From the IMG/VR virus record IMGVR_UViG_3300020045_004441, positions 1 through 64,000 of that record: a DNA stretch of 64,000 bases. One strand, 5' to 3'. Made by a program: the position numbers and the translations under genes. The stretch comes from a virus (taxonomy: Duplodnaviria > Caudoviricetes). Shown one piece after another: positions 6,001-49,805 of the stretch (position 1 is the first letter of the stretch; the number at the start of each line of letters is the position of its first letter). The notes under the pieces are model-generated. The model was not told the DNA's origin, ran no database searches, and worked only from the letters and a program-made list of their open reading frames with translations.

Positions 6001-9000
6001 TCATCAAATTCAGAAGGTTATCAACTGATCAAGTTGTGGACAAGCTATATGATGTATATCGTCAGGAATGGGCTAGGATTAATAGTATTAAAGAACGCGA
6101 ATCTTTACGTGCTGAATATATTAAAAATGGTCAACCGATTCCAGATGAGCTTAAGGTAATTAAGAATTACGATCACGAAAAGTCAAAACGATTCTTATTG
6201 CTGCCATTTTTAAATAATGGTAATCCACGAAAAGCTGTAGGCTCACAAGATGCAACTGCAATTAAGAGTGCAATAAAGGTTTGGATGGAATCTGAATCTC
6301 AAAAGGATTATGATCGTTTGGTTAAACTTGAAGTTCTTGGTAAAGATGCTGACGGTTCTGTTAGATATGATTCTAGAATAGATGCTTCTTGGGGTAATGA
6401 TAAAGCATTCCATAAAGATTATTTTTATAACTCGGTTTTAGCCAATAGTCAAATGATGTCAATCTTCTCTGGAGATCCAGCTTTCTACAAGGCAGATAAA
6501 GGAGATAAATTTCCATCTATATACAGCCGTACTGTTGACTACCAAAAGCGTAACAAACAGAATGTATCACCAAAGACTGTTATTGATGTTAATGCTATTG
6601 TTAACTTAACTGAATCGCAAGCTAAAACTGAAGGTAAAACACAATTAAGTGTTAGCCCATTCTATAATACAATATATGTTAAAGATAGGGAGATTGTTTC
6701 ATATAATAGAGATTCAATAAAAGATGGTCTACTAGATAGCGGGACAGACGAATTTAATGCGTTTAAGATAGCTGCTGAATATGGGTTTGCTAATTACTTT
6801 ACGGTCATTATCGACGGCAATACCAGCGAGTTTAAATCAGAACGTGATGCTCAAATTTTCGCAACCGCCAATAAATCTAAGGTCAATAGGTTTGCTGAAA
6901 CTTCAGATGGGCAATACTTTTCGTCAAAGGAAATCAACGTCACTGATGCCCAAGCATACATAACGCTTCCTAGATATAGGGAGATTATGGTTGGATTAGG
7001 TAGATGGACTACTAAATTACAAGATTTATATCCAAGATTATTAGATGGAACCGCATCTGGCAAGGAATTGCTTATGGTTATGCAACCTATTAAACCATTC
7101 TATTTTGGTCATAGCAAGGTTGGTAATCTAGTTGTTCCTACACAAAATAAGAATTCTGAGTATTTATTATTGCCACAATTGATCAAACAATCACCTGAGT
7201 TACAAAAACTCTATGATCACATGATTAATAATAATATCAGTTCAGCTAACTTTAACTCTGCTGTTAAAGCCGGAGAATTTGGTGCTCAGCCACTAGAAAA
7301 TATAGAGAATGCTTCTGTACATGTGTTAAACAATGCTGATTATGGATTACAGCAAGAAACACCTGAGCATCATATTGACTCACGTAGTCTTATTGGTAGT
7401 CAGATTAGAAAACTTTCTATTGCAGACATCAGTAAAGATGCTAAGTTTGATCTATATGGAAAACCATTCACTAAACAACAATTATTAGATCTATATCATG
7501 ACATTACATCAACTGATCTTGAGGAAGATTACAATAAGATTGCAGACAGATTTAGTAGTGTTGAGAATATACAGGACTTATTGTTTGCTGAGATCATTGA
7601 TCGCGACATGGGCGAAGAGCGTGAGAAAGCTGTTGAACTAGTAGACAGAGAAAATAAAGTTACTGGATTAATGGAGAAAGTATTTAACTTGCCATTATTT
7701 CATCCATATCACGCTAAGAGTAATGAGAGTTTAATGAACTCTGTATTCAAGAATAATATTACTAAGCAAAAAATTAAAGGTGGTGCATTCGTACAGGTAA
7801 GTGCATTTGGATTCGATAAGAGTCTTAAACTTAATATCAAGGATGGTAGATTGGTTTCTGCTGAATGTAAATTGCCTTGGTGGTCTAAGAAGTATTTTGA
7901 GCCAATGCTTGACGAGAATGGTCAGCTTGATATAAATAAAGTCCCAGAGAATCTACGTGAGATGATTGGCTATAGGATTCCTACTGAGGATAAATATTCC
8001 ATGCTTCCACTTATTGTAACTGGATTTTTACCTGCAAGTGCTGGTGGAGCTGTTATGCTACCAATGGAAATCACCACAATATCAGGTAGTGACTTTGATA
8101 TTGACAAGATGTATATTATGATGCCAGAGTGGGAGACCTCTGAGGATGGTAAAGATATACGCAAGGTTCAATATGATTTAAATGCAGAAGAATTACAATC
8201 CAAAGAAGCTCGCAATAATGCCAAAATAGACATCATTAGAGCTGTTTTAACGCACTCTGATACATTTGCTAAGATATTTAAGCCTGGTGGATTCCCAACG
8301 CTCTCAGAGCTTGCAGATAGGGTTCTTAAGCTCGAAGGCAAGGCTGATGAGATGCTACCAATGACACTACCATCAACACAGGCTGAGTTATTTAATCGGA
8401 ATATGACTGGCAAGGCTCTGATTGGGATATTTGCTAACCATAACACAAGTCATGCAATATTGCAGAATACCAAGATTGAATTTGCTAATCCAATATCATT
8501 TGATGGTGTTAACTTAAATTCATTACATGAGATTACAAATGCTAATGGTGACTTCATATCTAGAAACGTAGCCGAATGGTTGGCTGCTGTTGTAGATAAT
8601 GCTAAGAATCCATTGAGTGCATTTATAAACGTAAATACATATACTGCTGACGTTGCTGCAACTTTAACTAGGCTTGGTTATCCTCTAGAAACTGTTGTTG
8701 GATTCTTATCACAACCAATATTAAAAGAATTCTCAAATAGATATTTCAATAATGGTGCAAATCGTCAGGCTGAAATCAAAATTACAAAAGAATTAACAAC
8801 GCTATTTGCTGCTGCTAATTTTCAAGCAGAAGAAATAAAAGAAATAACTACTGATCAATTATTTAAAAATATTGAATCTGGAGAGTTGTTTAACAAGAGC
8901 CAATGGGATGTATTTAATACATTTATTCGAGTTAAAGAACAATCTACTGCACTTGCTGATTTAGTTAGAGCAACTAGAGCTGACACTAAAGGTGCTGGCC

Positions 9001-10442
9001 CAACTTTATCTGAGAATGATAAATTACTTAGACTTAGAACTCAGGTGTTGACTAATCAAGCATTAACTGGTGTGCAGGAATTGTTTGATGGCAAGGTTTA
9101 TCCAATGGAAAAAGCTTTTACAGAATTTGGCGTAGAAAAACCTACAGAGATATTATCCAAATACTTCCCATGGTTTAAGCCAGCCTGGAAAGGTGTTAAA
9201 GATAGAATCGAAGGTAATCTTAATGGTAAACAATTATCTGTTAAGCAAATAGAGCAGATTAATTATGAATTATTGGGATATGCTGCTAGCGGATTTGAAT
9301 TCTTTGACGGTAGTGATCGTGCTGATATTATTAACAATATGGCAAAGAAATTATATGCTATTAAAGAGAAATATCCTAAAGAATTTGCAGAGAACTATTT
9401 CTTAAATAAATTGATTGTTAAGTCTGATGAGAAATATCCCAATAGACCCAAAACTATCAACTTTAAGAATACAGGTAGTTTAACTGAGCAAGATAAACAG
9501 CAAGTTAAAGAGAATTGGTTACATTTGCTTCGTGATGATAAATTCAGTACTTTTGCAAAAGAGTTGATTAAATATTCATTCTACTCTGCTGGATTTCAGA
9601 TTACGCCAAATTCATTTAATCATTTAATACCAGTAGATTTCTATAGTAATTTAGAAATGACTGTAGCTGGAGAGAATGGAAAACCAGTGGTTGTTACATT
9701 TAATGAATATCTAGATAAAACTATGGCAGAAGCTGAATCTAAATCAATATTGAATCCATTCATAGAGCAATTTTATAAGAATAATTCAGATGATTCAAGT
9801 TTTGTGCCAATGGTTGATACTGATAAATTTAGCAACATAACTGGTGGTATTAATTATCTTAAAGGAAAACCTGCTTATTTTGAAGTTAACGCAGCAGATA
9901 AATCAACAACTAATGATTTCGTAATTAAGATTGAAGAGAAGGTGGCTACATTTAGTCCATTTGTTTCAATGAAAGAAAAAGGCGTTGTTTATCTGTATAA
10001 AGCAAATCAAGTAAGTAATATGAAAGCTGTTTATACTTTAACAAATAAACTTGGAGTTCCAAATCAAGTGCTAGAGTATATTAAGAATGGCATTGATAAG
10101 AGTGCAATTACTGAGAATAATCCATTTATAGGATTCACTGAAGCGGATGTAACTAATGCAATTCCAGAGACTAAGGCTAAAATTGAAGAGCAAGCTCAAC
10201 CGGAAGTTAATACTAATACAAAGCCCATAGACGAGTACTCTGAAATAACAGAATCGGTTGACCAGAGAGATATTGATACATTTAATGAATTGAAAGCTAA
10301 AATAATTGAATCTGAACTAACAAAAAAACAGATTGATATACTTAATCAATATAATAAATCAATAGGTGATTTGGTATTGATTGAAAATGACGTTAAATTA
10401 TCAAGAGAAAATATTGGAATACTAAAACAATTAGATTGTTAA
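1..10442 (+). CDS. Virion-packaged multisubunit-type RNA polymerase polyprotein (crAss-like, phi14:2 gp66-like); probably 5'-truncated by the window
   Basis: 3463-aa ORF from 51; the frame is also open from base 3 to 50 (GLEFEPYGGIKSADEG). Catalytic motif GSDFDIDK at 8085-8108, plus GYRIPTEDKYS and a zincin HEAFH motif at 3975-3989. Confidence 0.93.
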   Translation, partial: GLEFEPYGGIKSADEGMTSYDLNDIPEARATQQSGLELTGKALGQAVNELTLGTFEAAGYLLDAPGIYNAVAGNEGEFDNFFSKIFRDVKENINEKYLPIYQTHAAENGSIFDATSLAANSTSLAASLTLMIPALGVARGLNIAGKLVGMGAKTIALTEAVGAGLASRHTENTMEGQQYLKQYTEKNKQDLAPKYQEMAEAEMANLPLVMPPNEYGFSPYSQEDRVKAESAILNKYKTQLESEASQMAAKGANRVYAADGALAVVDVLQYMPLFKGFGNVLKGVKFSKPAETAFQMVSEAGEEGFQQGNQMEAYESTKAGIDMFGSGYSERLGEYLKDKDMKMNAFWGAMGGGVFAAAGPIAKKAVDSYTDIDLTRKRAALRNDVDAFNKIDDDIKTDLIFKHAKRGRLDKLSADMDALDQSLDDQNWNEIGITKEEAQAKIKLFKEDIAFANEQKAIIDSNPNFKDHKDAALDFLNVKLKARNNGKQIKDLNTSLTYLYREILDNGELDSGLLEIKKLQDNLNAFKEIKSNLTNIPSFKKDKSLKEATNGKLEINIGLLQSKLNDAITSYKESNPTVDINTAIKTVNDPKIAQKYNRLKELQIVNDDVVKPTLAAYEKASVIKEKDAKLKEDQANVNRATVVEDVVNATTEEDVDAVLESTPEENTDDAINAINKKAEEESIDAPDTPDLRYVGRPNLFTKEMGDLNTHVIGEYNNQLTDTTESELAAIIMSTNAEEFNKAYMDLYNQSKQNLDAAKLFDVMQRFYENIGKSKTDLADSKNVKTDGEHQIDEFEDTVISDFHPTDKKSSDIGYLPVDEFIAPTQGISPNRTAIRQFTITKAGNKTVIKRVDGVAELDFVAKQMPIDWDYVNDSKSVAAGSEVYFTVNLNDTISTKKTDYHKKLQGEDFIHASQILIAQKDAAGVEHIISALPIYQGSNVTENGFKLKALREQIWQGVKSSGQKLGTYNSGITTKVTKKYSGMLLISNTKNNPHEVLKPGEKLVLGIAKNINGKTTIDAGKNVDAEYSGIEVDNSNDGGIFILLRGTNGRIIPARCFTAQLQRFPELMAQAKKLLAETNKDNWAVNREQLRKIVYIDYNYIPKTDSFELRDKSGNVTTFNKDGLDAILRTKIVQVASSEINRGNYNETISKQGRLKTDITPGNPIVNSNFEFSLDYQMPEQKTETTKISINEALSSDEARAIIGDEFSGIPTISPQPKLIENNNLPTEEPEIPDSFEDFDNPLGDNNITPTRLKVASNKEFYQKWDELKETKWFKDRFDESLIDTDKFRDGLINVSKNGGIQAYGMFKNAVAYISGAAQTGTTYHEAFHVVFSLYLNEAQRSQLLKENANLGKTNVEIEESIADKFMDYVRSEELDKGGLGKQIVDFFKQLYYMIKSKITNDLTLDQVFFQAQHKMYKKSPFARNVDNFKVVRYSIANMTPYEAQRRAVALSDEMRKALDSYIEQNPDLNNTPRKDAIAGMQHTNDKGVKFSGLDMLALKSRAELIKIYNSGTLDATQKTSMAKMIKEFISMDASGQVVFGELARKSLLQFAKNEGLRIRLSSKEIFSSIDSTETDPVNDLFEEDTQAEGWQISTENVSHKESLSNEVRKELSYIPQTVEDGSPELDDLGFIIYQDFNTVFSDLQRDLANSVDSVEMMEKLAETVNNKPYLTDIYNKINTDLNLRTKFFVNFQLSHVDYVTVRQRKQYIPPTIKGAKGTYSYQYHIFSSNRNGVKNILVDEWKDNSVDPAFNKTVNKDGSINMSEVAKVKTQWDKLTAILRNKDNYGPSETKLMANILNHIGITITVKDLNDLNKNFTSANGKITYGKTKINTLKFELDKIVNRLSLGENPFSSTSYESEAIDNVAKTISKFRHELMESSFRNGENKTMYAHQTPTFLSRSIQQFKGKNWEDRIAWYQQDVFYRDSAWLNELKEMESRNEFGFIEIDSINYDNNSDGIRYTKMAPKDFENTAVNMYFNNGDKNYVYYKFPVVSDAPKMPFIKFRRLSTDQVVDKLYDVYRQEWARINSIKERESLRAEYIKNGQPIPDELKVIKNYDHEKSKRFLLLPFLNNGNPRKAVGSQDATAIKSAIKVWMESESQKDYDRLVKLEVLGKDADGSVRYDSRIDASWGNDKAFHKDYFYNSVLANSQMMSIFSGDPAFYKADKGDKFPSIYSRTVDYQKRNKQNVSPKTVIDVNAIVNLTESQAKTEGKTQLSVSPFYNTIYVKDREIVSYNRDSIKDGLLDSGTDEFNAFKIAAEYGFANYFTVIIDGNTSEFKSERDAQIFATANKSKVNRFAETSDGQYFSSKEINVTDAQAYITLPRYREIMVGLGRWTTKLQDLYPRLLDGTASGKELLMVMQPIKPFYFGHSKVGNLVVPTQNKNSEYLLLPQLIKQSPELQKLYDHMINNNISSANFNSAVKAGEFGAQPLENIENASVHVLNNADYGLQQETPEHHIDSRSLIGSQIRKLSIADISKDAKFDLYGKPFTKQQLLDLYHDITSTDLEEDYNKIADRFSSVENIQDLLFAEIIDRDMGEEREKAVELVDRENKVTGLMEKVFNLPLFHPYHAKSNESLMNSVFKNNITKQKIKGGAFVQVSAFGFDKSLKLNIKDGRLVSAECKLPWWSKKYFEPMLDENGQLDINKVPENLREMIGYRIPTEDKYSMLPLIVTGFLPASAGGAVMLPMEITTISGSDFDIDKMYIMMPEWETSEDGKDIRKVQYDLNAEELQSKEARNNAKIDIIRAVLTHSDTFAKIFKPGGFPTLSELADRVLKLEGKADEMLPMTLPSTQAELFNRNMTGKALIGIFANHNTSHAILQNTKIEFANPISFDGVNLNSLHEITNANGDFISRNVAEWLAAVVDNAKNPLSAFINVNTYTADVAATLTRLGYPLETVVGFLSQPILKEFSNRYFNNGANRQAEIKITKELTTLFAAANFQAEEIKEITTDQLFKNIESGELFNKSQWDVFNTFIRVKEQSTALADLVRATRADTKGAGPTLSENDKLLRLRTQVLTNQALTGVQELFDGKVYPMEKAFTEFGVEKPTEILSKYFPWFKPAWKGVKDRIEGNLNGKQLSVKQIEQINYELLGYAASGFEFFDGSDRADIINNMAKKLYAIKEKYPKEFAENYFLNKLIVKSDEKYPNRPKTINFKNTGSLTEQDKQQVKENWLHLLRDDKFSTFAKELIKYSFYSAGFQITPNSFNHLIPVDFYSNLEMTVAGENGKPVVVTFNEYLDKTMAEAESKSILNPFIEQFYKNNSDDSSFVPMVDTDKFSNITGGINYLKGKPAYFEVNAADKSTTNDFVIKIEEKVATFSPFVSMKEKGVVYLYKANQVSNMKAVYTLTNKLGVPNQVLEYIKNGIDKSAITENNPFIGFTEADVTNAIPETKAKIEEQAQPEVNTNTKPIDEYSEITESVDQRDIDTFNELKAKIIESELTKKQIDILNQYNKSIGDLVLIENDVKLSRENIGILKQLDC

Positions 10443-20712: not shown

Positions 20713-20939
20713 TATTTCTTTTTAAGTTTTAAAATTGATTCTTTATCAACTCCTGTTGTTGGCTTATAATCGTATTTTGTACCAATACAATATCCAGCAC
20801 TGATACATTTAACATTTTTAACAGCATCATCAATTGCCTGATTATACGCTTCTATTTGAATGGATTTTATTAGTTCTGATACACTTATATTTGTATGATT
20901 ACCATAATACCAATCTTTTATTTCTTCTGCTGATCTCAT
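20712..20939 (-). CDS. Hypothetical protein (resembles 17565-17777)
   Basis: 75-aa ORF. Confidence 0.6.
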   Translation of the reverse strand: MRSAEEIKDWYYGNHTNISVSELIKSIQIEAYNQAIDDAVKNVKCISAGYCIGTKYDYKPTTGVDKESILKLKKK

Positions 20940-21721
20940 TTATATGTAATTTCAAATGATGTTTCTAATAGTTCATCTAAATCTTTAACGTTAGGTAGAA
21001 CCATTCTTAATTTAGCTTTAATAATATCTTTATAATCTTGACACAAATATGTCTTTCCAAGATATTCTACATTAACAGAATTAATATAGTTTATATTTGA
21101 GAATATGTCTATCTTAACATCATTAAAAGCTACTGGAGTTCTCTCTACGCCGCTTGGATCTGGTGGATATTTACATCCATAAGGATTGTCATAAATATCA
21201 TCATCGAGCATATATTCCCCCACACAAACTATATCTAAATCTTTAAACATAGTTCTAGTGATTTTGCCTTGAAGATATAGGGCTACTGATCCAGTTAAAT
21301 AAATATCACCAATCTCCTTCTTGCATAGATTATCAAATGCATCCAAGCATTCTTGAAGCGTATATTCTTCCTTAAGATTGTATCGAACTTCAGCCTTCTG
21401 CATCTTCTGCTCCATAGATAATCCACGTCTAGGCTTAATAGATTTCGGAATTTTTGATTCACCAGGTTTATATGCCTTAAAAGCATCTCTCATTGATTTT
21501 ACGTGTTCAGAATAAAAATCATCAACTTCATATGGAGACTTCTTTCTTGAATCATATTTATCTGAAGCAGTATTTATTTTTGGTGGATCAATATAGTCTA
21601 CTACAGATGTGTATCTACCTGGATCTATTGAGGTTCCCGGAGAATTGTATCTACTTCCAGGAACTATTACATTCCAAGAGAAATCTACATCTCCAATTTT
21701 AGGTTCTTCGCTTTTACTCAT
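20936..21721 (-). CDS. Nucleotidyltransferase (Pol beta superfamily) domain protein
   Basis: YLTGSVALYLQG...KDLDIV (GS plus DxD) with a later KIDIF third aspartate. Confidence 0.65.
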   Translation of the reverse strand: MSKSEEPKIGDVDFSWNVIVPGSRYNSPGTSIDPGRYTSVVDYIDPPKINTASDKYDSRKKSPYEVDDFYSEHVKSMRDAFKAYKPGESKIPKSIKPRRGLSMEQKMQKAEVRYNLKEEYTLQECLDAFDNLCKKEIGDIYLTGSVALYLQGKITRTMFKDLDIVCVGEYMLDDDIYDNPYGCKYPPDPSGVERTPVAFNDVKIDIFSNINYINSVNVEYLGKTYLCQDYKDIIKAKLRMVLPNVKDLDELLETSFEITYK

Positions 21722-21723
21722 AG

Positions 21724-22008
21724 TTAATCTTTAAATTCTTCAAATGATAACCAATCTTTAGATGCACAATATAATAAAATATATCCAGCCAAATCTATGA
21801 GATCATTTTTACGTAACTCACTGGAATTCATTATTCTGGCGGTCTTGTCGTCCATTCTCAAGGCAATGCTATTATCTGCATCTAATTTACTAAATATCTT
21901 TATTGGGCTTAAAGCTGAATCGCCATATTTTTCATTCTTATATTTAAGTAATGAATTCAACGATCCAGTTATTTGATCAATTTTCCATGCTGTATTTTTA
22001 TCTGTCAT
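21724..22008 (-). CDS. Nucleotide-modification-associated domain 1 (Nmad1/DUF1599-like)
   Basis: KNEKYGDS...RMDDKTARI...DLIDLAGY pattern. Confidence 0.7.
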   Translation of the reverse strand: MTDKNTAWKIDQITGSLNSLLKYKNEKYGDSALSPIKIFSKLDADNSIALRMDDKTARIMNSSELRKNDLIDLAGYILLYCASKDWLSFEEFKD

Positions 22009-22769
22009 TTACTTACAGTTAAATTATTAATTAATTCTTTTATGTCACAATAATTTTCTTCGGTAAAATTAATCTTATAAGGAGCGTTAAATTCACTCCC
22101 TTTGTATTGTAGAATAAGATTATATTGTGATCCAATCATCCTACTAAATACATATCCTCTAAGCAAAACCATAGATTCTGGATCTTTAATATCTAAGATT
22201 ATTGTACTAACGCTATCAGTGATTTCTATGTCCTCAATGGCCTTAAAATTGACGATTAAGAGACTTTCTTTATCTTTATTGTACGAACACTCACATAAAT
22301 AATATCGCCCCTTAAAAGCCTTAGAAATGAGCTTTTGATATTGCTCTCCAAATAAGAACATTCTACATTCGCTATCTGAATCCTTCCACAGAATTCTGGC
22401 ATAATTATTGCCAGCTAAAGATGTACAATATTCTATCGTATCAATTCTAGCAATAAATACAATTTTACCTTGGCTTTCCGACAATTCATTAATTGATCTA
22501 AGAGTGTTATTGCAAAATCTCTTTGAATGTAAAATATATCTATCCTGAATATTATACGTAAGAGCTACTCCCATTAAATCAACCTCGCGTTGTAATAATT
22601 CTTCATAGTTAACATTTTGAGGTGTTTTAAGATCTATGGTTTCATTCTTAGTCTCTGCAAATAACGATAGTTGATCTTTATTATTACGAGAACAACTTTT
22701 AATCAAGGATTCTGAGTTCTCGACTATAGTTGCTCTCCATAATAATTCATCTCTAATTTTCTGATTCAT
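22005..22769 (-). CDS. Stand-alone DnaE (Pol III alpha) C-terminal-like protein: clamp motif plus OB fold, no catalytic core
   Basis: QLSLF at 22659-22673, ELLQREVDLMG, GNNYARILWKD...CRMFLFGEQY resemble the DnaE C-terminus. Confidence 0.65.
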   Translation of the reverse strand: MNQKIRDELLWRATIVENSESLIKSCSRNNKDQLSLFAETKNETIDLKTPQNVNYEELLQREVDLMGVALTYNIQDRYILHSKRFCNNTLRSINELSESQGKIVFIARIDTIEYCTSLAGNNYARILWKDSDSECRMFLFGEQYQKLISKAFKGRYYLCECSYNKDKESLLIVNFKAIEDIEITDSVSTIILDIKDPESMVLLRGYVFSRMIGSQYNLILQYKGSEFNAPYKINFTEENYCDIKELINNLTVSK

Positions 22770-23647
22770 TAGAAGTGTTCAGCATTATATTCAGCTTGTT
22801 TAGCTTCTTCATTTGGATCAACACCAAAGTCTACGTGATATGGATTTGCAAATTTAATTTGTTCCATAATTCCACGGCCATGAGCAATTACTCTTCCGCC
22901 TCTAGTTGCTTCTGATATTCGTGTAGAATCTGCCACTGGCTGAGTGTCGCCATCTAATATGGCTTGTGCTTCAACTATTGCACGCATTTCACTGACGGCA
23001 TATCTTATTTCAAGAGCATCGTCCTCCTCTTCATCCTCATCATGCTCGCCATTAGGTTCTTCATCTTCAGTCTCATCATCACTAAATTCCATACTTTGCC
23101 AACCTGACTCGGTTGATTTTTCCAATAGATCAATTTCAAATCCAATTAATGTATTGCCAGAACGTTTATTTCTAAATGGATCTAAAATTGTTATTCCATT
23201 GATTAATTGAAATAATCTATCTCCAGTAGAACCGGTATTGGTATAGAATAATACTTTTGAATATCTATCATTCTTTTTAATGTCAGCTAGAAATTGATCC
23301 ATAGCATTAAGAAAATCTGCTTTTGACATATCGCCATTAGCAGAGAAATTCTTAATGATTGCGATTCCACAGCATTCTGGGAACGGTATTTGATCAAATC
23401 TCATAGCTGTCTCACCGTTGATTTTGTAACGATAAACCCTACTGTCACCATAAGATCTATTTCTATCAGTAATATCAATATCTAATTCATTTCCTTTCAT
23501 TATTTCAGTTGATTTTGTTTTTATTTCATCAAAATATGATTCTTTAATCCAACTTCTTGGGATTGTTGTATTGCCGCCAATAAAAATATCTCTCATTATG
23601 GAATCTAGTCTTTCTATAGTGAGATTTTGATATGTAAATTCATTCAT
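22769..23647 (-). CDS. Hypothetical protein with CCG...NxxSGN domain and acidic tract
   Basis: ECCGIAII...FRNKRSGN; EDEEPNGEHDEDEEEDD. Confidence 0.7.
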   Translation of the reverse strand: MNEFTYQNLTIERLDSIMRDIFIGGNTTIPRSWIKESYFDEIKTKSTEIMKGNELDIDITDRNRSYGDSRVYRYKINGETAMRFDQIPFPECCGIAIIKNFSANGDMSKADFLNAMDQFLADIKKNDRYSKVLFYTNTGSTGDRLFQLINGITILDPFRNKRSGNTLIGFEIDLLEKSTESGWQSMEFSDDETEDEEPNGEHDEDEEEDDALEIRYAVSEMRAIVEAQAILDGDTQPVADSTRISEATRGGRVIAHGRGIMEQIKFANPYHVDFGVDPNEEAKQAEYNAEHF

Positions 23648-23653: not shown

Positions 23654-24238
23654 TTACTTCACATCCATTTCCACCAGACATGACTCGTGCTTGTTATTTT
23701 CTGAAATCATCGTGCATATTTTTATAAAATAATCATTGTTAAATACATTCTTCATTCTGTTGATATCTTTATGAACCCATTGTACATTTCCATCTACATA
23801 CCCCAATGAAGAGTCTATTCTATCTAGAGAGGCTGTTCCTGATCTATCTTTTGACCTGGTTGGAAAATGTAATTCTATTCCAGACAATGCACACTTTTTA
23901 TTCTGTTTCAAGAATAAATCCCAAATATATTCTTTAGATATAGATAATTCAACTGGAGCCCGGCTCCCTTTATCTCCATTGGCACTTCTTTCTATGCTGT
24001 GTCTCCAAAAGTTTCCAGAAATGTCTCCAATTCCAGTCCATTTGGGATGTGATTTCCCAACCGGCCTATCACATCCACAAGACTTAGTATTGCCCTGAAT
24101 TAAATGGGTTCCAAGAACGTCGGTTTTATTTCCACACTCACATAGACATCTATATCGTATGTGTCCATTTCTGGTCTTTGAGTTTATCTCTTCTACTATA
24201 AGCTTACCAAATTTTAATCCTCTTAAATCTTTTCTCAT
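23654..24238 (-). CDS. HNH-type homing endonuclease
   Basis: DLRGLKFGKL, CLCECG, SCGC, KCALSG, SLDRIDSSLGYVDGNVQWVH. Start moved to MRKDL (24238). Confidence 0.85.
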   Translation of the reverse strand: MRKDLRGLKFGKLIVEEINSKTRNGHIRYRCLCECGNKTDVLGTHLIQGNTKSCGCDRPVGKSHPKWTGIGDISGNFWRHSIERSANGDKGSRAPVELSISKEYIWDLFLKQNKKCALSGIELHFPTRSKDRSGTASLDRIDSSLGYVDGNVQWVHKDINRMKNVFNNDYFIKICTMISENNKHESCLVEMDVK

Positions 24239-24258
24239 ATACTCACATTTTATTAATG

Positions 24259-24289
24259 CAAATATAGTAAAAATATGCGAGAATGCAAA
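24259..24289 (-). promoter_or_regulatory. Bacteroidetes-type primary-sigma promoter for the HNH gene
   Basis: TTTG-N19-TATATTTG on the minus strand. Confidence 0.65.
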
Positions 24290-24290
24290 A

Positions 24291-26168
24291 TCAGATAACC
24301 TCACACGAACCGCTTCCTCCACAAGCAACCTCTCCCATTAAAGATGTTTCATCATACCCTTCGATAACTTTAGTTAAATCTACATTTTTAAGATTAACTA
24401 TTGCTGCATCATACTCTTCTTTAGTGCAAGATTCAAATGGAGCCTGAATATATGAATGATTATCATGTGGCAATACAGCAATTCCACTGTATGTTTTACG
24501 ATTATTCCACATCCATCCAGCAACCTCATCCCATTCATTGTCTCTGATAGATACAGTACAACTCACATTATGCTGATTATATCCACTTCTAAATCCAGGA
24601 TTAACCCATTGTTCTGTAACAGCTTTAACTCTAGTAAGTAAATCTATCGCAGATTCATTTCTAATAATAGAACCTTCTGGAGCTTTTTGTGGGATCTTAA
24701 TAATTGCAGTTGTTGATGCATTAAAGAAATCATCTTCAAGTAATTCTGGATTATTATTAAGTAAATATCCATAAATACTTTCATTTTTATTCACTCGCAT
24801 TCTTCTCCAATAGTAATTATCGTGCCAAGCATGAATTCCGCTAGAAGTTCCCAATACTAAGCTAGTTGTACCGGCCGGCTTAACGGTCGTTATTCTTGCA
24901 GCTCGCCTAATGCCAATTCTATCAGCATATTCAGCGTTTGTATCGACGGCAATAGAGGCCGCTTCTTCAAGATTATAATTAAACACTTTCATCGAAGCAA
25001 TTCCAGTCATTGAAACGCCCAGTAAAGCATCTTTCTCGCAATTAGTCTTCCAAGAATCTCGCAAATAATGAAAATCTGTATATGAAGCCTGTAATGTTCC
25101 AATTATAGATGCGGCCCTAACTCGATCATTCAAATCTTGTTGAGATTCAATATTTGAAACATTAACTTCAGTCAAATTGCAACATGCTGTGTCTCTGAGA
25201 CTTATCTCGTGGCACGGGTTGAATCCCATCTCTGGATTATTAGTCCAAGATATTCCTGGCTCCCCTGCGCCTGAAGCTTTAATATAATTCCATAACTTCA
25301 AGAAGTCTTCTTTTTTAACTCTAGATCTAACAACTACTGCACTGTTATTTGCTAATCTAAAGTGAGGATTTGTGTCCCACCAATTGCCAGATTTACATGA
25401 AAGCATGTCTGTATCATCAATTGTAAACAATGCTATTAGCGATGCTCTTCTTATTCCACCCGACAATACTGCATCTGCGATGTGACACATAATTGAATGT
25501 GCCTCCAGTGTTGATAATTGATCTCCATCATTTTTAGACTCAAGAATTCCTTGAATTTTGACCAAGCACTCTCTTAGCGGCCTAGCTCCAGGAGCTTTTC
25601 CACCTGATGTAATTAATAATGAGCCCTTAGCTCTAATTTCTCTAAAATCAAAATCTATAGATGAATTTGATAATCCAAAATACGATTTTATCAAAACCTT
25701 AACTGCATCTGCCCACCCCTGAATACTATCAGATATAACATATCTACGGCGTCTGTTGATATTAGGCTTTCTAATTAATGGAAGCTTGGCTACGTGATGC
25801 TTCTGTACAGAATATCCCAGCCCACAGCCGCTTAGCAATAAAAACATTGCTTCCTGAAATATTCTTATATCGTTAACTGCGGCATAAGAGCAGTTATACA
25901 ATCTTGCTGGGTTGATTTTGGCTGCCTTACCAGCAAACTGAAGACTCCTCATCGACGGAAGAACCTTCTTGTCATACACGTATTGATACGCATCTCGAAT
26001 GTCTTTTTGTAATGATGGAAACTTCTCAATATGCATTTCCATATTACGAGTAACTATTTCACTCCAAGACTCTCGCCTATTCTTTTCGGGTAAAAACCTA
26101 GCATATTTATTAAAAATAGTGATTTCACTCAATATCTCTCTGCTCACATCTCTCTCACTATCGCTCAT
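24291..26168 (-). CDS. nrdJ: Class II (B12-dependent) ribonucleotide reductase, monomeric type
   Basis: PSMRSLQ, NPCHEISL (NxCxE), TVKPAGTTS, C-terminal CGGSGSCEV. Confidence 0.92.
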   Translation of the reverse strand: MSDSERDVSREILSEITIFNKYARFLPEKNRRESWSEIVTRNMEMHIEKFPSLQKDIRDAYQYVYDKKVLPSMRSLQFAGKAAKINPARLYNCSYAAVNDIRIFQEAMFLLLSGCGLGYSVQKHHVAKLPLIRKPNINRRRRYVISDSIQGWADAVKVLIKSYFGLSNSSIDFDFREIRAKGSLLITSGGKAPGARPLRECLVKIQGILESKNDGDQLSTLEAHSIMCHIADAVLSGGIRRASLIALFTIDDTDMLSCKSGNWWDTNPHFRLANNSAVVVRSRVKKEDFLKLWNYIKASGAGEPGISWTNNPEMGFNPCHEISLRDTACCNLTEVNVSNIESQQDLNDRVRAASIIGTLQASYTDFHYLRDSWKTNCEKDALLGVSMTGIASMKVFNYNLEEAASIAVDTNAEYADRIGIRRAARITTVKPAGTTSLVLGTSSGIHAWHDNYYWRRMRVNKNESIYGYLLNNNPELLEDDFFNASTTAIIKIPQKAPEGSIIRNESAIDLLTRVKAVTEQWVNPGFRSGYNQHNVSCTVSIRDNEWDEVAGWMWNNRKTYSGIAVLPHDNHSYIQAPFESCTKEEYDAAIVNLKNVDLTKVIEGYDETSLMGEVACGGSGSCEVI

Positions 26169-28947: not shown

Positions 28948-29181
28948 CTATGAATTAAGTTCATAATACTCCATTGTTTTATTATACAGATTATCAGCAA
29001 TTTCTTCAGCCTTTGAATTATCCATCTCAGCAAAGTAATCAACGAGTTCATCGCTGATTATCCTTGCCGTATCAAGATTATTAGAATTGATGTTCTTCTT
29101 ATATATATTAATGACATCTTTATTGTTTTTAGACATTAAGACCATTAACATATCTGCAATTCTAAATAGTTCGTCTTTCAT
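28948..29181 (-). CDS. Hypothetical protein
   Basis: 77-aa ORF. Confidence 0.6.
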   Translation of the reverse strand: MKDELFRIADMLMVLMSKNNKDVINIYKKNINSNNLDTARIISDELVDYFAEMDNSKAEEIADNLYNKTMEYYELNS

Positions 29182-30617
29182 CCTAAAACACTATAAGGTG
29201 GCACAATTAAATCCTCAAGAAGTTCTTTATCTCCCTGAGCATCCATATTAACCATATAATCCTTCCGCCATTGCACATATCCACTTAAAATTGTTGCCAA
29301 TTCTGGTAAATATACGTCGCTGAATATAGAATTTAAGTTAACAGTTCTCAAATCACTAAAATTAGCAATCTCATCTTTATGTTTTTCAACATAAGCCATT
29401 ACAGCATTACAGATAAATAGCCAATTAAGCATTTTGTGAGGGTTCTGAGTGATTGTATGAAGTCTGAATTCATGCGTGCCCGATCCACCCCAAATCATTG
29501 GTATACAGTTAGTTATGAAATATCTCTGAGAAATATTCCATTTCTGTCTGTTCTCTCTATCTAGAGGATGATTCTTTACACCAAATCCTTCAAAATGACC
29601 ATTACCTCCAGAATAAAAATTATATAATGCTTCAAAATTCTGATCAACAGTATTATTTTTCAATAATCTAATGTTCTTAATTGGAGCACAATAATCTTTC
29701 TCTTTGAATTTATTTTCAGATGTGAACTGATAATTACTTGGAAACATACTATAAAGCTCATCCTGAATTCTCAGCATAACTCTATGCATTGCTACAACAA
29801 ACGCTTTAGATGGAGCATATCCGCCAATATGTAAATGAAGAGAACATTTCTTACCTATAGTGGTATATTTCTGAATTAAATCAGCAATATCAACCATAGT
29901 ATGAACACCTTTCTCTCCACTTAATGGGATTGTTGTGAATTCAAATGGCTCAATACCATCGTGTCTTAAACTGCCATCTCTAAGTGGAATTAATCCATTC
30001 TTAAAGCATTTCTGTTCAGGTATATAACCATCAGCAGTCTCCACTTCAAAGCCAAACGTCTTGTCATTCAGCTCTTTAGCGAATTTGGCTAGTTTTGGAA
30101 GATACTTACTTGGCGTATAAGCCTTATCATAAGCTTCTTTGAATTGCTTAATCTTAGGCCCAGCACTGTAAGATAAATCAAATGAATATCTAGCGCCAAT
30201 GCCTTTCTTATTAAGTCGCTCGTTAGATAGCTTGCCTTTAGGATAGAATGTTCCGGTGGAAATCTCTTCAACGAATCCAAGTTTATTTGGAATCTCATCA
30301 GAAATACATATTACATCATTCATCCTAACGTTCTTTAGTGGATTTGGAGAGAAATAACCATTAATGGCAACTCCCTTATCGTCAACTCCAACAATGCCCT
30401 CATATAGCTCAGTGTTTTCTAATAGAACCCACCTCTGAGCCTCATGGTCAAATGCGATTAATCCATTGTTAATTCTGTGCCATTTATTATCTGGCATCAA
30501 AAAACAATCTACATTAATCTCATAATATTCATTTTTAATATAACGACATTTATTTCTTGGAACTAATTTACCATTAACAGTTGTTACTGTAAAATCTTTT
30601 GTATTAGAAATTGTCAT
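29178..30617 (-). CDS. Putative amidoligase (Amidoligase_2, glutamine-synthetase-like fold)
   Basis: TFGFEVET, DGSL, EPFEFTT, CSLHLHIG, THEFRLH. Confidence 0.8.
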   Translation of the reverse strand: MTISNTKDFTVTTVNGKLVPRNKCRYIKNEYYEINVDCFLMPDNKWHRINNGLIAFDHEAQRWVLLENTELYEGIVGVDDKGVAINGYFSPNPLKNVRMNDVICISDEIPNKLGFVEEISTGTFYPKGKLSNERLNKKGIGARYSFDLSYSAGPKIKQFKEAYDKAYTPSKYLPKLAKFAKELNDKTFGFEVETADGYIPEQKCFKNGLIPLRDGSLRHDGIEPFEFTTIPLSGEKGVHTMVDIADLIQKYTTIGKKCSLHLHIGGYAPSKAFVVAMHRVMLRIQDELYSMFPSNYQFTSENKFKEKDYCAPIKNIRLLKNNTVDQNFEALYNFYSGGNGHFEGFGVKNHPLDRENRQKWNISQRYFITNCIPMIWGGSGTHEFRLHTITQNPHKMLNWLFICNAVMAYVEKHKDEIANFSDLRTVNLNSIFSDVYLPELATILSGYVQWRKDYMVNMDAQGDKELLEDLIVPPYSVLG

Positions 30618-32520
30618 ATCCTGTAACTAGGGTGAATTTTTTAAATTTATTTTCTTCGAGTAAAATATCTTCCAACTTGGATAGATTATTAATAGACATA
30701 GCTGCATCTTGTGTTGAAATACCAGACACTTCAATGTCATTACGACAAGCATCAATTGCCATCAGAATAGCACTTAACCCATCATTTAAAGCTGTTTTAA
30801 GCAAGGAAGCATCGGAACTTATTGCGTCATCAATATAACCCAATCCTCTGCATAGCGAGCAAACGTTCATATTTGCATCATCGCCAGTACCATTGCAGTC
30901 TGGACATAATATACAATTTTCAGGCAAATCATCATCGCTTGGCCCAGCCTCAGATGCAACTTCAATTTCTTCCTTGAGTTTATTATGCTTATCTAAGATG
31001 GCATCCATCTCATCTTCACATTGTTTACATGTGCATGTTGTTGGATGTTGAATTAAATCACCAGCTTTTTCTGTATAAACTACTGGTAATGTAATAATCT
31101 TAGTCTCAGTCTTTTCGTGAACTGGCTTATTTATGACAGCAAGAAACTCAACACTTATTAAACTACCACCAGCAAATCTATACTTCTTTGTACTAAATAA
31201 TGGTGTTACATTTCCAGTAAATAATGGAGCCTTGCATTGCATTGCTGCTGGATTTTTAAGCCATACTCTAGCGTTATCATATGTTGGTAGCTCATGATCT
31301 AATGTACATACTGGATATTCAGCATATTCACATATTTTCATTACGTTCATTTCAGTGTCATTGAAATGCCTAGCTTTACCAAGATTACGTCTACACTTAT
31401 CAAATGCATCTTTATCTTTAAGCATTATTCCACGATAGAAATAATATGGCTTTTCATCAGAAGCACATGCATATTCGCCTTTAACGCCACTCTCATCAAG
31501 ATTAATAATACCATTAGCATAAGTTGGAGTTACGCCATCAAACATAAAGTAATACCTCAATCTTGCGCAAATAATCTTTTTAGGATTAAAGTTTTTACAG
31601 ATCATGTCTTTCTTGATGCTTAATTTAAATGTCTCTTTAACTTGTGGATACGCTGATTCGTAATAAGCTGCAATTGCCTCTGCATTACCATAGCCATCAT
31701 CCCAATCGTCAGTTCTACCATAACCATAATGCTTAGTACTAGAATTATTGGCAGTATTTACATATGTTGTTGTTGGCCATATTTTATTCTGAGAACAATC
31801 TTTTCTATCGAACACTTGCTCGCTAATTATCTGACCACCAAAAATTGTATATAATTTATTTGGCTCAAAATCCACCACGTTATCAGCATCACCACCAATA
31901 AAATATAATCCATCACACTTTGATGAAATATACATTGAGGTTTCTGACTCTTGATAATAACACAATGGACGCTCTTCTTCAACTTTGACTCCATATGTTT
32001 TAGATAAACCTTTAAATACCTTTAAAGTATCAGGCTCTCTATCGTCCTTAATAATTATTGCAGCTGCACCATTGTATTCAAGCAATACTCCAAAACCATA
32101 ATTCATAATAATTTCAGCAAATACCATTGAGTCAGATTTTCCTTTCTTATCAATATTGTATTTCTTAGCAAGCTCTTCCCAATTATGGAGAGTGCCATTA
32201 TGAATCATTATGAATCTACCTGAACCATCTGGTAAATCAAGTACTACCGGCTGAGCTGTAGCTTCTGATATCTCACCAACACTAGCTTTTCTAGTGTGAC
32301 CCAAGGCGATGTGCGATGGGTCACTATTCTTCGTGTTGATAACATAATCTTGATATGTTGTTTTAGCTTTCTTTGATACAAATTTATCAATCGTCTCTCC
32401 AACAATTCTACCAATGGAATCACCTCCACGCTCATCGTTGTCTAATCCAAGATGATTAAATTTATCCCAATTGAAGTTGTGATTATTTCTTAAACTGTTG
32501 TAGGCCCAAAGTCCACACAT
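30604..32520 (-). CDS. Class II (Ntn) glutamine amidotransferase with long C-terminal extension
   Basis: N-terminal MCGL, RGGDSIG, LGHTRKAS, HNGTL, DS; C-terminal CxxCxGxG pair. Confidence 0.85.
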   Translation of the reverse strand: MCGLWAYNSLRNNHNFNWDKFNHLGLDNDERGGDSIGRIVGETIDKFVSKKAKTTYQDYVINTKNSDPSHIALGHTRKASVGEISEATAQPVVLDLPDGSGRFIMIHNGTLHNWEELAKKYNIDKKGKSDSMVFAEIIMNYGFGVLLEYNGAAAIIIKDDREPDTLKVFKGLSKTYGVKVEEERPLCYYQESETSMYISSKCDGLYFIGGDADNVVDFEPNKLYTIFGGQIISEQVFDRKDCSQNKIWPTTTYVNTANNSSTKHYGYGRTDDWDDGYGNAEAIAAYYESAYPQVKETFKLSIKKDMICKNFNPKKIICARLRYYFMFDGVTPTYANGIINLDESGVKGEYACASDEKPYYFYRGIMLKDKDAFDKCRRNLGKARHFNDTEMNVMKICEYAEYPVCTLDHELPTYDNARVWLKNPAAMQCKAPLFTGNVTPLFSTKKYRFAGGSLISVEFLAVINKPVHEKTETKIITLPVVYTEKAGDLIQHPTTCTCKQCEDEMDAILDKHNKLKEEIEVASEAGPSDDDLPENCILCPDCNGTGDDANMNVCSLCRGLGYIDDAISSDASLLKTALNDGLSAILMAIDACRNDIEVSGISTQDAAMSINNLSKLEDILLEENKFKKFTLVTGYDNF

Positions 32521-32548
32521 AAGTTGTTGATTATTAGTTAATTACTAT

Positions 32549-32911
32549 TTATTTTATTAATTTAAGTGCAGCTAACAGTCCAGCTTCTAATGCAAGCTCG
32601 TAAGATTCAAATTTACCCCAATTAGTTGACTCTTCGTGATATGGCAGTGAATAATGATATATTTTGGTTTGACCATTAAACATTCCAGATCTTATTGTTA
32701 TATTAATTTTATGAACTTCTCGGAGCCAACGTTGTAATAGACTTTGAGTTGGAGCTGAAATAAAATCTATACAATTTTGAGAGTTCCAATCATACATTAA
32801 TGAAGTTCTATCGGTCAGTATTTCTTGACGATACATTTGATAGACCTTCCAGTCAAAATCTTTATCCTTGGCTAGTCTCGCAGTTTGCAGTGACACTAAT
32901 TGCTCTTGCAT
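32549..32911 (-). CDS. Hypothetical protein
   Basis: 120 aa; VSLQTARLAKDK...APTQSLLQRWLRE resembles a common Bacteroidetes-phage family. Confidence 0.65.
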   Translation of the reverse strand: MQEQLVSLQTARLAKDKDFDWKVYQMYRQEILTDRTSLMYDWNSQNCIDFISAPTQSLLQRWLREVHKINITIRSGMFNGQTKIYHYSLPYHEESTNWGKFESYELALEAGLLAALKLIK

Positions 32912-33728
32912 CTTCTTTAATTAATTGTTCATTTAAATCAATACCAAGCACCATATATTGGTTCATAGTAAATTCAGCATTTTCAGTTACTGGAGCTTTA
33001 ACATAATCCAATAGTCTAAGATTTTCATAATTAGCACAATATTGCACAGCTTTGATAGTTTGTTCGTAAGTCCAAGCCAAATGTTCTTCAGCGGTAAAAT
33101 GTCCACCTAAAGCGCGACACTCAATTCCATAGGCTGGACAATCACGATATACGCCATAATTACCATAATATTTAGCCCTAAATTCATCATTGTGATGTTG
33201 TCTAGCTGGATACACTACGAAGTAATCAAATGCCTTAGCAATATAACGATTCATCTGACGCTTATCCAAAACCCCTGCAACCATATGATAACCAACATGA
33301 TGGTGATGACCAGCTACTCGAACTGGCATAAAACTCATATTCTCAGCAGAAAAACTACCTAACTCCCAAGCGTTTTTATACGCTGAGCAGCCAAACACAT
33401 TTGCCTCTGGATGCTCTAAAAATCTAGGTTTGAATCGCATTGAATCAGCTGAATGAAGTTGTAATCCTGCAATAGCAAGAACACTATTCATCATTGATTT
33501 AAGGGTCTTCATAGACGCTACAAACTCATCAACATTCTTGGCTGGTGGAATGTTCCCCTCAACTAAAACATTGTCTTTAAGGAGCGCAAAACCACCTCCT
33601 TGGTCTTCTGGAGACTCTTTGGTTCCGTTAAATATTCCAATTGATGGAAATGCATCACCTTTTTTATCTACAATGAAAAATTCTGGATCTGATCCAATTG
33701 TTATATTATCTAAATCAATTAAATTCAT
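32862..33728 (-). CDS. phiEco32-like COOH-NH2 ligase type 2
   Basis: IGSDPEFF, GTKESP, DNVLVEGNIPP, RVAGHHHHVG, YGIECRALG. Confidence 0.85.
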   Translation of the reverse strand: MNLIDLDNITIGSDPEFFIVDKKGDAFPSIGIFNGTKESPEDQGGGFALLKDNVLVEGNIPPAKNVDEFVASMKTLKSMMNSVLAIAGLQLHSADSMRFKPRFLEHPEANVFGCSAYKNAWELGSFSAENMSFMPVRVAGHHHHVGYHMVAGVLDKRQMNRYIAKAFDYFVVYPARQHHNDEFRAKYYGNYGVYRDCPAYGIECRALGGHFTAEEHLAWTYEQTIKAVQYCANYENLRLLDYVKAPVTENAEFTMNQYMVLGIDLNEQLIKEDARAISVTANCETSQG

Positions 33729-34015
33729 TATTGTTGTTTTTGTTTGTTGTAATATTTTATGAATTCAACTACTGTTCTCCAAAGAGAATTAATATTAACC
33801 TCAATCAATGCATCATTAAGTTTAAATTGATGATTAGATAAATTATTTTCAATTAAATCATATTTTTCAAAACATCTCTCAACTACTGGCATTAACCAAT
33901 CCCAAGATTTATTATATTTTAATGATTGTAAACACAATAAATCTTTATTACCTTTTGATACTTTCATGAAGTTATCAATCAATTTATTTCCTTTAATTAT
34001 CTCCGTTGAATTCAT
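33728..34015 (-). CDS. Hypothetical protein
   Basis: 95 aa; YNKSWDWLMPVVE. Confidence 0.65.
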   Translation of the reverse strand: MNSTEIIKGNKLIDNFMKVSKGNKDLLCLQSLKYNKSWDWLMPVVERCFEKYDLIENNLSNHQFKLNDALIEVNINSLWRTVVEFIKYYNKQKQQ

Positions 34016-34023
34016 GATTTAAT

Positions 34024-35109
34024 TTATACTACTTTAAAATGTGTTTTTAATAAATGTCTTTTACAATAATCATCATTCTTAACTATATAAAGATTATCAT
34101 ACATCGAGAATTCAGCTTGATATTTATTACCTTTAGTTAGCGTTTTAAGCCTATCTGTAATACATTCTACTTCAAATGGCTTTCCAGACACCTCTTTAAA
34201 TACATCAATTGCTGCCTTAAAATTTGAGACATTCATTAAAGTGAAATTACTTTTCTTTGCATTTGAGAATGATAGATTAATACTCTCGCCTTTTGGTAAT
34301 CTAGTTTTAACATCTTCCATACTAACATATCCTGTTTGGTATAATAATCCATAATATCCAGAATAATTGGTTTTAGATAAAGCATAGTATAATGCATCCC
34401 AGGGGTCAATTGTAGTGTCTGATTTAATAATTCTCAACGTATCTGCAACTAATCCATCAAAATGACAGCTCCATAAAAATCTGTAGAATGTTAAGATTGC
34501 TAATTTATGATTAGTACTCAATGCTTTAGAGCAATCAATGGTTACTATATATGCATTAAATTCAGGAATTGGCATAACCATTTTGGCATCTTCTTGCTCT
34601 TTGAGAATTCTTTCAACATAAAGATCTAAGCATTCTCCAGTTTCATAAACCTGATGATCAGAGGCATATCCATTCCAATTTGAGAACATTTTATTCCCAT
34701 TAAATTTATCAGTTCTATATACAGAGCAATGTGTTTGCAATCTACTAAAATTGCCATCTATTGAATTTATTACTCCAAATACATTTTTATTTGCATCATT
34801 CTGTCTGTACCTATAATTCTTTTTACAGGTAATTCTCAATCCTTTGAATTGTTCTAATCTTGGATCGTATGACGAATTATTGCTACTTAAATCAATATTT
34901 ACTTTCTCTAATGCAGCTGGAAATAATGTTTCATTACCAATTTTATTCCACAATGTAACATCATCATCTGAAATCCCTGTATTCAACCATGTGAATGGAA
35001 TGTAAATATCAATTGGAATAGTTTTATTACGAATATCCATCATACATTGTGTTTGCTGAATGCCGTAACCTTGATGATAATCGTATTTAGTGTTATTATG
35101 ATCTGCCAT
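34024..35109 (-). CDS. Hypothetical protein inside the ligase cluster
   Basis: 361-aa ORF between the COOH-NH2 ligase and ATP-grasp genes. Confidence 0.7.
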   Translation of the reverse strand: MADHNNTKYDYHQGYGIQQTQCMMDIRNKTIPIDIYIPFTWLNTGISDDDVTLWNKIGNETLFPAALEKVNIDLSSNNSSYDPRLEQFKGLRITCKKNYRYRQNDANKNVFGVINSIDGNFSRLQTHCSVYRTDKFNGNKMFSNWNGYASDHQVYETGECLDLYVERILKEQEDAKMVMPIPEFNAYIVTIDCSKALSTNHKLAILTFYRFLWSCHFDGLVADTLRIIKSDTTIDPWDALYYALSKTNYSGYYGLLYQTGYVSMEDVKTRLPKGESINLSFSNAKKSNFTLMNVSNFKAAIDVFKEVSGKPFEVECITDRLKTLTKGNKYQAEFSMYDNLYIVKNDDYCKRHLLKTHFKVV

Positions 35110-35923
35110 AATTTGCTATTTTGTCATTAATAATCTTGGGTAATTCCTCTCTATATTTAACTTCAGTTACACTTCCGAGCGATGCGGCGCTGTTAATTTC
35201 AAGAATTATAAATTCTGGTACAAAATCTTCACGGCGTCCTTTCTCGGACTGCACCTTAACGTCACAAGCACCCAAGTCTAACCCAACTGCATTTAATGCC
35301 TTTACGCACTCAGATACAATATCATCCCAATTCTTAGGCTTTTCAAATAGAGGATTTTCTTCCATCATCCAAACTGAATTAGAATCATGACGATGCCAAC
35401 GATCTTCAGCATCTTGTTTTAACATTTTACGACAAGTATAGAAACAACCATCTTTAGTTACATGCAAGCGATACTCTTTAGTCATGCTTGAAGCGAAAAC
35501 TTCCACGATATAATTAGAATGATCTCTATGTTCGGATATAAAATTATCCAAATCAGACTGAGATAATATTAGATAAATTCCTTCACCTTTGCATGAGTTT
35601 TTATGCTTAATGATTGCTGGGAATGTTGTCCAATCAGCACCATCAACATCAGTTATATCTTCAAGTTTGCTCCATTGTGCTGTTTTAACTCCAATCTCAT
35701 CAAACTTTTGCTTCATAATAATTTTATTACCACTGTTATGACAAGCTTCAACTGTATTTACTTCAATAACTGGTCGTCCCTGTGGCATCCTAGGAAATGC
35801 CTCTGTAACAGTAGTTCTACTACCTAGACGTATAATACAACGCATAGCAAACTCCCCTAGAGAATTTCTAAGAGGAGCTGCTGTATGATTCTTGGTTCTA
35901 ATTTGTGGCTTCCAGGTCTTCAT
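35096..35923 (-). CDS. ATP-grasp peptide ligase (RimK-like / phiEco32-type)
   Basis: PAIIKHKNSCKGEGI, EYRLHV, GLDLGACDV, ILEINSA. Confidence 0.85.
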   Translation of the reverse strand: MKTWKPQIRTKNHTAAPLRNSLGEFAMRCIIRLGSRTTVTEAFPRMPQGRPVIEVNTVEACHNSGNKIIMKQKFDEIGVKTAQWSKLEDITDVDGADWTTFPAIIKHKNSCKGEGIYLILSQSDLDNFISEHRDHSNYIVEVFASSMTKEYRLHVTKDGCFYTCRKMLKQDAEDRWHRHDSNSVWMMEENPLFEKPKNWDDIVSECVKALNAVGLDLGACDVKVQSEKGRREDFVPEFIILEINSAASLGSVTEVKYREELPKIINDKIANYGRS

Positions 35924-36152
35924 CTCTAAATATTAAATTAGCACAATAAATTACAAAAATTACAAATAGTATGACTGCAAATTCAATCAAATAAACAATC
36001 CCCATATTTACCATAAACGAGTGGTGATTATCCGTTAAGAATCCCACTATACCAGTAAAAACTGGCAATATAGACAAAAGAAGAGCAGACCCTACTATTT
36101 GTCTAGTCTTGATATGCATATCTTCTTTTGTAAAATTCATTCCAATCACCAC
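35898..36152 (-). CDS. Small two-TM membrane protein
   Basis: Two hydrophobic stretches. Confidence 0.55.
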   Translation of the reverse strand: MVIGMNFTKEDMHIKTRQIVGSALLLSILPVFTGIVGFLTDNHHSFMVNMGIVYLIEFAVILFVIFVIYCANLIFRDEDLEATN

Positions 36153-43177: not shown

Positions 43178-43201
43178 AACGGCTATCTGTTTATTAGATA
43201 G

Positions 43202-43232
43202 CAAAGATATACATTATTATTTAATTTACAAA
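43202..43232 (-). promoter_or_regulatory. Bacteroidetes-type promoter for the GIY-YIG gene
   Basis: TTTG-N19-TATCTTTG on the minus strand. Confidence 0.65.
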
Positions 43233-49477: not shown

Positions 49478-49500
49478 AAAAGGGTGTTGACGTACACCCT
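49478..49500 (-). terminator. Intrinsic terminator ending the tmRNA coding piece
   Basis: AGGGTGT-ACGTCA-ACACCCT followed by TTT. Confidence 0.7.
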
Positions 49501-49790: not shown

Positions 49791-49805
49791 AACGAATTTA
49801 ATTTG

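Follow-up and report, generated by a model that had tools for sequence, protein, structure and literature searches.

A stand-alone homologue of the DnaE C-terminal region in the replication block of a crAss-like phage with no recognisable DNA polymerase gene

The 254-amino-acid (aa) protein encoded at 22005-22769 on the minus strand is a stand-alone homologue of the C-terminal region of DnaE, the alpha subunit of DNA polymerase III (Pol III). It is the non-catalytic tail of alpha, with a clamp motif, an OB fold and a counterpart of the tau-binding domain, and it is encoded in the replication block of a phage in which our searches recovered no DNA polymerase. We tentatively propose that this DnaE tail could be a host-derived docking module that connects the phage helicase-primase with the clamp and clamp loader of the host.

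The window analysed here is the first 64 kb (64,000 nucleotides) of an IMG/VR record of 77,055 bp with an estimated completeness of 76%. Judged by sequence comparison, the record is a crAss-like phage (Crassvirales). Its TerL and portal proteins share 43% and 51% identity, respectively, with those of crAss001, the giant transcription-block proteins of crAss001 (putative RNA polymerase, RNAP) have homologues in the record, and the genes of the replication block follow the same order as in crAss001 (helicase, Sak4, primase, exonuclease and ribonucleotide reductase, RNR). On the minus strand of the window are a DnaB-like replicative helicase (43565-44701; phrog_19; 31% identity to the crAss001 helicase), a DnaG-type primase (39398-40450; phrog_12622; 32% identity to the crAss001 primase) and the RNR (24291-26168; phrog_367, E 2.4e-123), the last of which is a conserved landmark just upstream of the gene pair that includes the DnaE tail. 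A portal-based search identified a complete relative, IMGVR_UViG_3300001041_000002 (101,419 bp, with direct terminal repeats and rated 100% complete), which is syntenic with the record and carries the same DnaE-tail gene (E 1.4e-80). By comparison with this genome, the missing quarter of the record holds the capsid and tail (structural) genes.

A preliminary description, made from the sequence alone, had noted a 254-aa ORF with a QLSLF pentapeptide at 22659-22673, followed by a DnaE-like ELLQREVDLMG stretch and an OB-like region. The ORF is present in the ORF list on the minus strand, QLSLF is encoded at those positions, and alignments together with an AlphaFold2 (AF2) model and structure alignment recover both of the elements that follow it. 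Pfam and PHROGs gave no match to the 254-aa protein, and nothing was found among PDB sequences searched with the single sequence and with a profile of the close family; only the broader family profile reached the alpha subunits of E. coli and Taq. This profile matches E. coli alpha (5fku_A) at residues 894-1089 (E 4.7e-8), where QLSLF lands at the internal clamp-binding position, and Taq alpha at residues 945-1096. When a 44-member family alignment was compared with ten DnaE C-termini by hhalign, the probability was 99.8% (E 3.9e-29) over 244 columns, with QLSLF in register with the QMSLF of Bacteroidales-type DnaE and the E..LG helix of the family in register with EKEv.G of DnaE. The homology spans the whole 254 aa, and the elements have the same order as in the DnaE C-terminus.

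The predicted structure is consistent with these alignments. The AF2 model has an overall pLDDT of 77, with values above 85 in the OB and C-terminal domains, and Foldseek ranked Taq Pol III alpha first among its matches, which also included E. coli alpha and PolC. A helix with the E..LG signature (residues 55-70; 22560-22607, minus strand) follows the clamp motif, as it does in DnaE. Next comes the OB fold (residues ~100-178; 22236-22472, minus strand; pLDDT 85-92), for which VIA-align gave M. tuberculosis DnaE1 (7pu7_A; Z 12.0, rmsd 3.0, 105 aligned residues, model 71-176 against 992-1099). The alpha/beta domain at the C-terminus (residues 185-254; 22008-22217, minus strand; pLDDT >90) is covered by the hhalign alignment, and VIA-align placed residues 72-254 of the model on residues 1012-1200 of Taq alpha (4iqj_B; Z 9.4, 167 residues, rmsd 7.3). 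This domain is likely homologous to the post-OB domain of DnaE, which binds tau in E. coli and Taq, and it is thus a putative tau-binding domain in the phage protein. No PHP, palm (PF07733), fingers (PF17657) or HhH domain was found in the 254-aa ORF; the protein lacks a catalytic core and cannot polymerise DNA. A reading of the protein as a single-stranded DNA-binding protein (SSB) was not borne out by the AF2 model, which ends in a folded domain and has no acidic C-terminal tail.

The pentapeptide QLSLF, at residues 33-37, is the consensus beta-clamp-binding motif, and peptides of this consensus are strong clamp binders. Across all ORFs of at least 60 aa in the record (28,439 aa), the pattern Q[LM][SDNT][LM]F occurs once, as the QLSLF of the DnaE tail, and in the complete relative it is likewise confined to the DnaE-tail orthologue. 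QLSLF is invariant in 21 of the 21 close homologues, and Q[LM]x[LM]F is kept at position 33-41 in nearly all of the ~60 family members. Among 44 divergent members (to ~20% identity), Q33 is invariant, as are E62 and G67 of the helix that follows, and L36 and F37 are present in at least 90%. The motif sits in a low-pLDDT (disordered) loop of the AF2 model (residues 24-51). Near-invariance at 20-30% family identity, together with a disordered setting, fits a short linear binding motif. Since no clamp is encoded by the phage, QLSLF, if it binds as its sequence predicts, can only address the clamp of the host.

The close homologues are 48-96% identical and all 253-261 aa in length. A profile search of 1.8 billion representatives gave 205 matches, about 50 of which are stand-alone clusters of 220-290 aa. 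The others are full-size proteins, aligned at residues ~750-1100, that are genuine Pol III alpha by Pfam (PHP, DNA_pol3_alpha, finger, HHH_6 and OB); in these, the matched region starts right after HHH_6 and overlaps PF01336. One subfamily of ~227 aa is without the C-terminal (tau-binding-like) domain, and tau binding therefore cannot be a universal core function of the family. The family is known from metagenomes only. It was not found by tblastn in 50,697 GenBank phage records (INPHARED) with the target and two distant members as queries, and IMG/VR scans with the close-family pattern, two other family members and the orthologue of the relative recovered only this record and one relative. 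Genome contigs scanned with the close-family pattern contained none, and the family is absent from both PolA-bearing crAss001 and the epsilon-group phage phi17:2. The genomic context of the family was read for the close clade, which is separate from the ~50 other clusters.

From the perspective of origin, the family profile finds chromosomal dnaE in 288 of 401 Bacteroidota genomes. The matches listed from these 401 genomes are long frames (mostly 1150-1540 aa, 53-90 bits), and no stand-alone copy of the tail was seen among them. Outside the Bacteroidota, the profile scores 36 bits against E. coli alpha, 25 against Taq and 12 against M. tuberculosis, and most of the metagenomic DnaE matches resemble Bacteroidota DnaE. 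Judged by scores rather than by a tree, this points to capture of the tail from the host phylum Bacteroidota, with the surfaces for host partners probably retained.

The replication block had been described as holding primase, helicase, SSB and RNR genes and nothing that resembles PolA, PolB or a DnaE core, and HMM searches of the complete genome had been suggested as a check. Six-frame HMM searches found no PolA, PolB, DnaE core, PHP, finger or clamp in the 77-kb record, and no PolA, PolB or DnaE core (PF07733) in the complete 101-kb relative. The same search recovered the PolA of crAss001 (2.2e-49) as a positive control. The absence of an intact polymerase, and of a DnaE N-terminal half, thus holds for the record as well as for the complete relative. 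The primase, helicase and RNR were confirmed; the SSB was not, as neither PF00436 (six-frame) nor PHROGs gave a match in the 77-kb record. The minus-strand block is tightly packed, such that a large hidden gene would not fit, and its unannotated ORFs gave no polymerase-like signal with Pfam or PHROGs. A few environmental crAss-like phages without a DNA polymerase (DNAP) have been described, and the repeated swapping of polymerase genes among crAss-like phages is an open puzzle (Yutin et al. 2021, PMC7886860).

The position of the gene is informative in this regard. In crAss001, PolA lies five genes after the RNR, and here the DnaE tail lies 2-3 genes after it, that is, in the same part of the block. 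This placement suits a role in replication better than one in early host shutoff. An HNH homing-type endonuclease (23654-24328, minus strand; phrog_3322 and phrog_374) lies between the RNR and the gene pair. It is absent at this site in contigs L005 and L006 and in IMGVR_UViG_3300001041_000002, and we therefore regard it as a mobile insertion. In total, the minus-strand replication block has three homing-type endonucleases; the other two, of the Endo VII/HNH and GIY-YIG types, occupy 38809-39408 and 42347-43204.

The first gene of the pair, directly upstream of the DnaE tail, encodes a 292-aa protein (22769-23647, minus strand) that had been described as not DnaE-like. Its structure agrees with that description, as Atlas and Foldseek on the PDB indicate a GNAT-fold core (~residues 48-176), after which an acidic linker leads into a variable tail. 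The same fold led us to reject this ORF as a missing part of a polymerase. Its TAA stop overlaps the ATG of the DnaE tail (TAATG), and the two genes are paired in four related contigs or genomes (L004, L005, L006 and IMGVR_UViG_3300001041_000002). The 33 homologues of the GNAT-fold protein differ little in length, and no Pfam domain is recorded for any of them. The protein carries invariant CCG and RSGN motifs, and its long, D/E-rich linker and its tail, which often has an aromatic end residue, are reminiscent of the acidic tails of SSB and T7 gp2.5. A complex prediction for the GNAT-fold protein and the DnaE tail scored 0.00, a result that counts neither for nor against a contact. On the other side of the gene, within 20936-22008 on the minus strand, a 94-aa ORF (phrog_1485) overlaps the DnaE-tail stop by 4 nt and is followed by a 261-aa ORF. 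The latter was recognised by neither Pfam nor PHROGs; a Pol-beta-type GS...DxD motif read from its translation suggests a putative nucleotidyltransferase.

We suspect that the DnaE tail may act as follows. The module would correspond to the part of Bacteroidota Pol III alpha that holds the clamp (QLSLF), contacts the ssDNA template through the OB fold and, for the long form of the protein, binds tau. It would have been kept as a free protein in a crAss-like clade that lost its own DNA polymerase, and its expression would go together with that of the helicase, primase and nucleotide-metabolism genes of the phage. Through binding to the beta clamp of the host, probably to tau as well, and through contacts with phage proteins, it could hold Pol III holoenzyme components of the host at the forks that the phage helicase-primase opens. 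The host replicase would thereby copy phage DNA, and the effect on the host machinery would be recruitment rather than inhibition.

We consider docking the most economical reading because the phage encodes a helicase and a primase without a polymerase or clamp, because its sole protein with a clamp motif copies the part of alpha that holds beta and tau, and because the gene for this protein belongs to the replication operon and occupies the stretch of the block in which relatives have a polymerase. With more hesitation, we suggest that the clade may have given up its polymerase and kept the captured tail of the host replicase as a 'plug' that hands the Pol III holoenzyme to the phage fork. Besides the short subfamily, two considerations count against docking. 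The DNAP-less Cellulophaga phage phi17:2 does not have the gene, which indicates that phages can manage without a polymerase and without the module, and a free protein that binds clamp and tau would compete with host alpha and thus behave like an inhibitor.

Such competition could itself be the function, in which case a free alpha tail would outcompete host Pol III alpha for the clamp cleft and for tau and dismantle host replisomes during takeover. The preliminary description had offered an adaptor or a decoy as one option; both of these putative roles fit the data, and computation does not separate them. A decoy would be expected to carry the binding determinants of alpha without the catalytic core, as this protein does, and its QLSLF is a consensus match. 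Blocking of the host clamp by phage proteins has precedents. However, neither the phage nor its complete relative has a polymerase, so that keeping Pol III from the clamps would harm phage replication too, and the gene is found at the position of the polymerase in the replication operon, not among small early genes. We therefore think it unlikely that inhibition of the host is the main role.

The DnaE tail could alternatively serve some other DNA transaction, as a clamp-tethered factor that recruits another protein to ssDNA gaps or to clamps that remain on DNA. The partner might be the GNAT-fold protein, one of the candidate enzymes of base or peptide modification, a Sak4/exonuclease recombination protein or the late-transcription machinery. 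Such a role would be in keeping with the TAATG overlap with the GNAT-fold ORF, with the conservation of this gene pair and with the flanking amidoligase/glutamine amidotransferase (GATase) cluster and putative nucleotidyltransferase, and the short subfamily, which retains only the motif and the OB fold, would fit a generic tether between clamp and ssDNA. Yet the GNAT pairing is not universal, given that a family member with 29% identity has a Zn-finger ORF upstream in place of the GNAT-fold ORF, and nothing connects the DnaE tail to modification chemistry. This role, too, seems improbable to us.

The cluster in question (29178-37643, minus strand) encodes an amidoligase, a COOH-NH2 ligase, a class-II glutamine amidotransferase (two copies), an ATP-grasp-like 'S6 glutaminyl transferase' and a gamma-glutamyl cyclotransferase, and looks like a peptide- or base-modification system inside the replication block. 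In the complete relative, the homologue of the amidoligase at 29178-30617 is in two ORFs with a 277-aa ORF between them (62726-65235), which may reflect insertion of an intron or mobile element.

It is considerably less probable that the protein is an accessory (processivity or docking) subunit of an unrecognised phage polymerase, or half of a split enzyme. Annotation is lacking for several ORFs in the block (including those of 408, 361, 217, 215 and 212 aa), and split DnaE genes do occur in phages (BFVD matches, e.g., a 449-aa 'DnaE_OBF' protein). Against this stand the six-frame searches of the record, the tight packing of the minus-strand block and the structural content of the missing quarter. 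The earlier suggestion of a split polymerase encoded elsewhere is disfavoured in particular by the complete relative, which has the same gene and no DnaE N-terminal half; with none of the three polymerase families in this genome, we consider a split DnaE very unlikely. In addition, the long relatives that were found are all ordinary full DnaE and include no PolA or PolB fusions, although this is weak evidence. Although the protein is a fragment of a larger gene family, a decaying, functionless remnant of a captured dnaE is highly implausible, because the ORFs of the ~50 clusters (20-96% identity) are intact and uniform in length, their motif is invariant and the fold is confidently predicted, and frameshifted copies, which would be expected, were not seen.

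It is useful to compare the docking proposal with known systems. The C-terminus of DnaE1 (E. coli ~890-1160; Taq ~945-1220) has the same order of elements and a clamp motif in register, and Bacteroidota DnaE scores highest. Unlike DnaE1, the phage protein is free-standing and phage-encoded, and it is without PHP, palm, thumb, fingers and HhH. In split or fractured dnaE genes (the cyanobacterial split-intein DnaE and two-piece phage DnaE) the C-terminal ORF is likewise separate, and homing endonucleases are nearby in the present case. In contrast to those genes, neither the record nor the complete relative encodes an N-terminal partner, there are no intein remnants, and the break falls after HhH, so that the non-catalytic tail alone is kept.

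Some phages enlist host Pol III by means of a helicase or helicase loader of their own, among them lambda, by way of P and DnaB, and SPP1, whose G40P contacts host tau. Like them, the phage described here supplies a helicase and a primase and no polymerase, and would need host Pol III. Unlike in lambda and SPP1, the link that we propose is made by a fragment captured from the host polymerase rather than by a helicase surface or a loader. The DNAP-less crAss-like phages reported earlier belong to the same group and are also without PolA and PolB; that report (PMC7886860) names no replacement, whereas here the part of the block that belongs to the polymerase holds the DnaE-tail gene.

Each of the elements is known already: the DnaE tail, clamp motifs and phage replication by host Pol III. 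In the literature that we searched, we found no description of a stand-alone alpha tail in polymerase-less crAss-like phages. Members of this group are among the most abundant phages known, and the DnaE tail is a concrete candidate for how the polymerase-less ones replicate. With a protein of ~255 aa and one sharply defined motif that can be mutated, the question of their replication becomes testable. If the protein does bind the host clamp and tau, it would be a minimal ligand of natural origin for the two hubs of the bacterial replisome, and could serve as a probe or as a scaffold for inhibitors of Bacteroidota replication. It would also be a case of a virus that has exapted a non-catalytic fragment of the host replicase. 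The 'plug', if that reading is right, would be a new way of hijacking the replisome and a further outcome of the turnover of polymerase genes in crAss-like phages.

Other features of the window are of interest in their own right. The 3,463-aa ORF at 3-10442 (plus strand) has 32% identity over 691 aa to crAss001 Gp50, a putative RNA polymerase, and is ~1,000 aa longer than Gp50. The ~6 kb at 49500-55800, where both the coding strand and the GC skew switch, have only short ORFs (<145 aa) and several gaps of 0.4-1 kb, and may be an early/regulatory region or an origin. At 49516-49885 on the minus strand, Rfam identifies a permuted tmRNA (RF04321; 70 bits, with a gathering score of 47) immediately next to a tRNA (RF00005); ARAGORN likewise calls a tmRNA at this locus, with the tag peptide GKTINLFREVAIAA.
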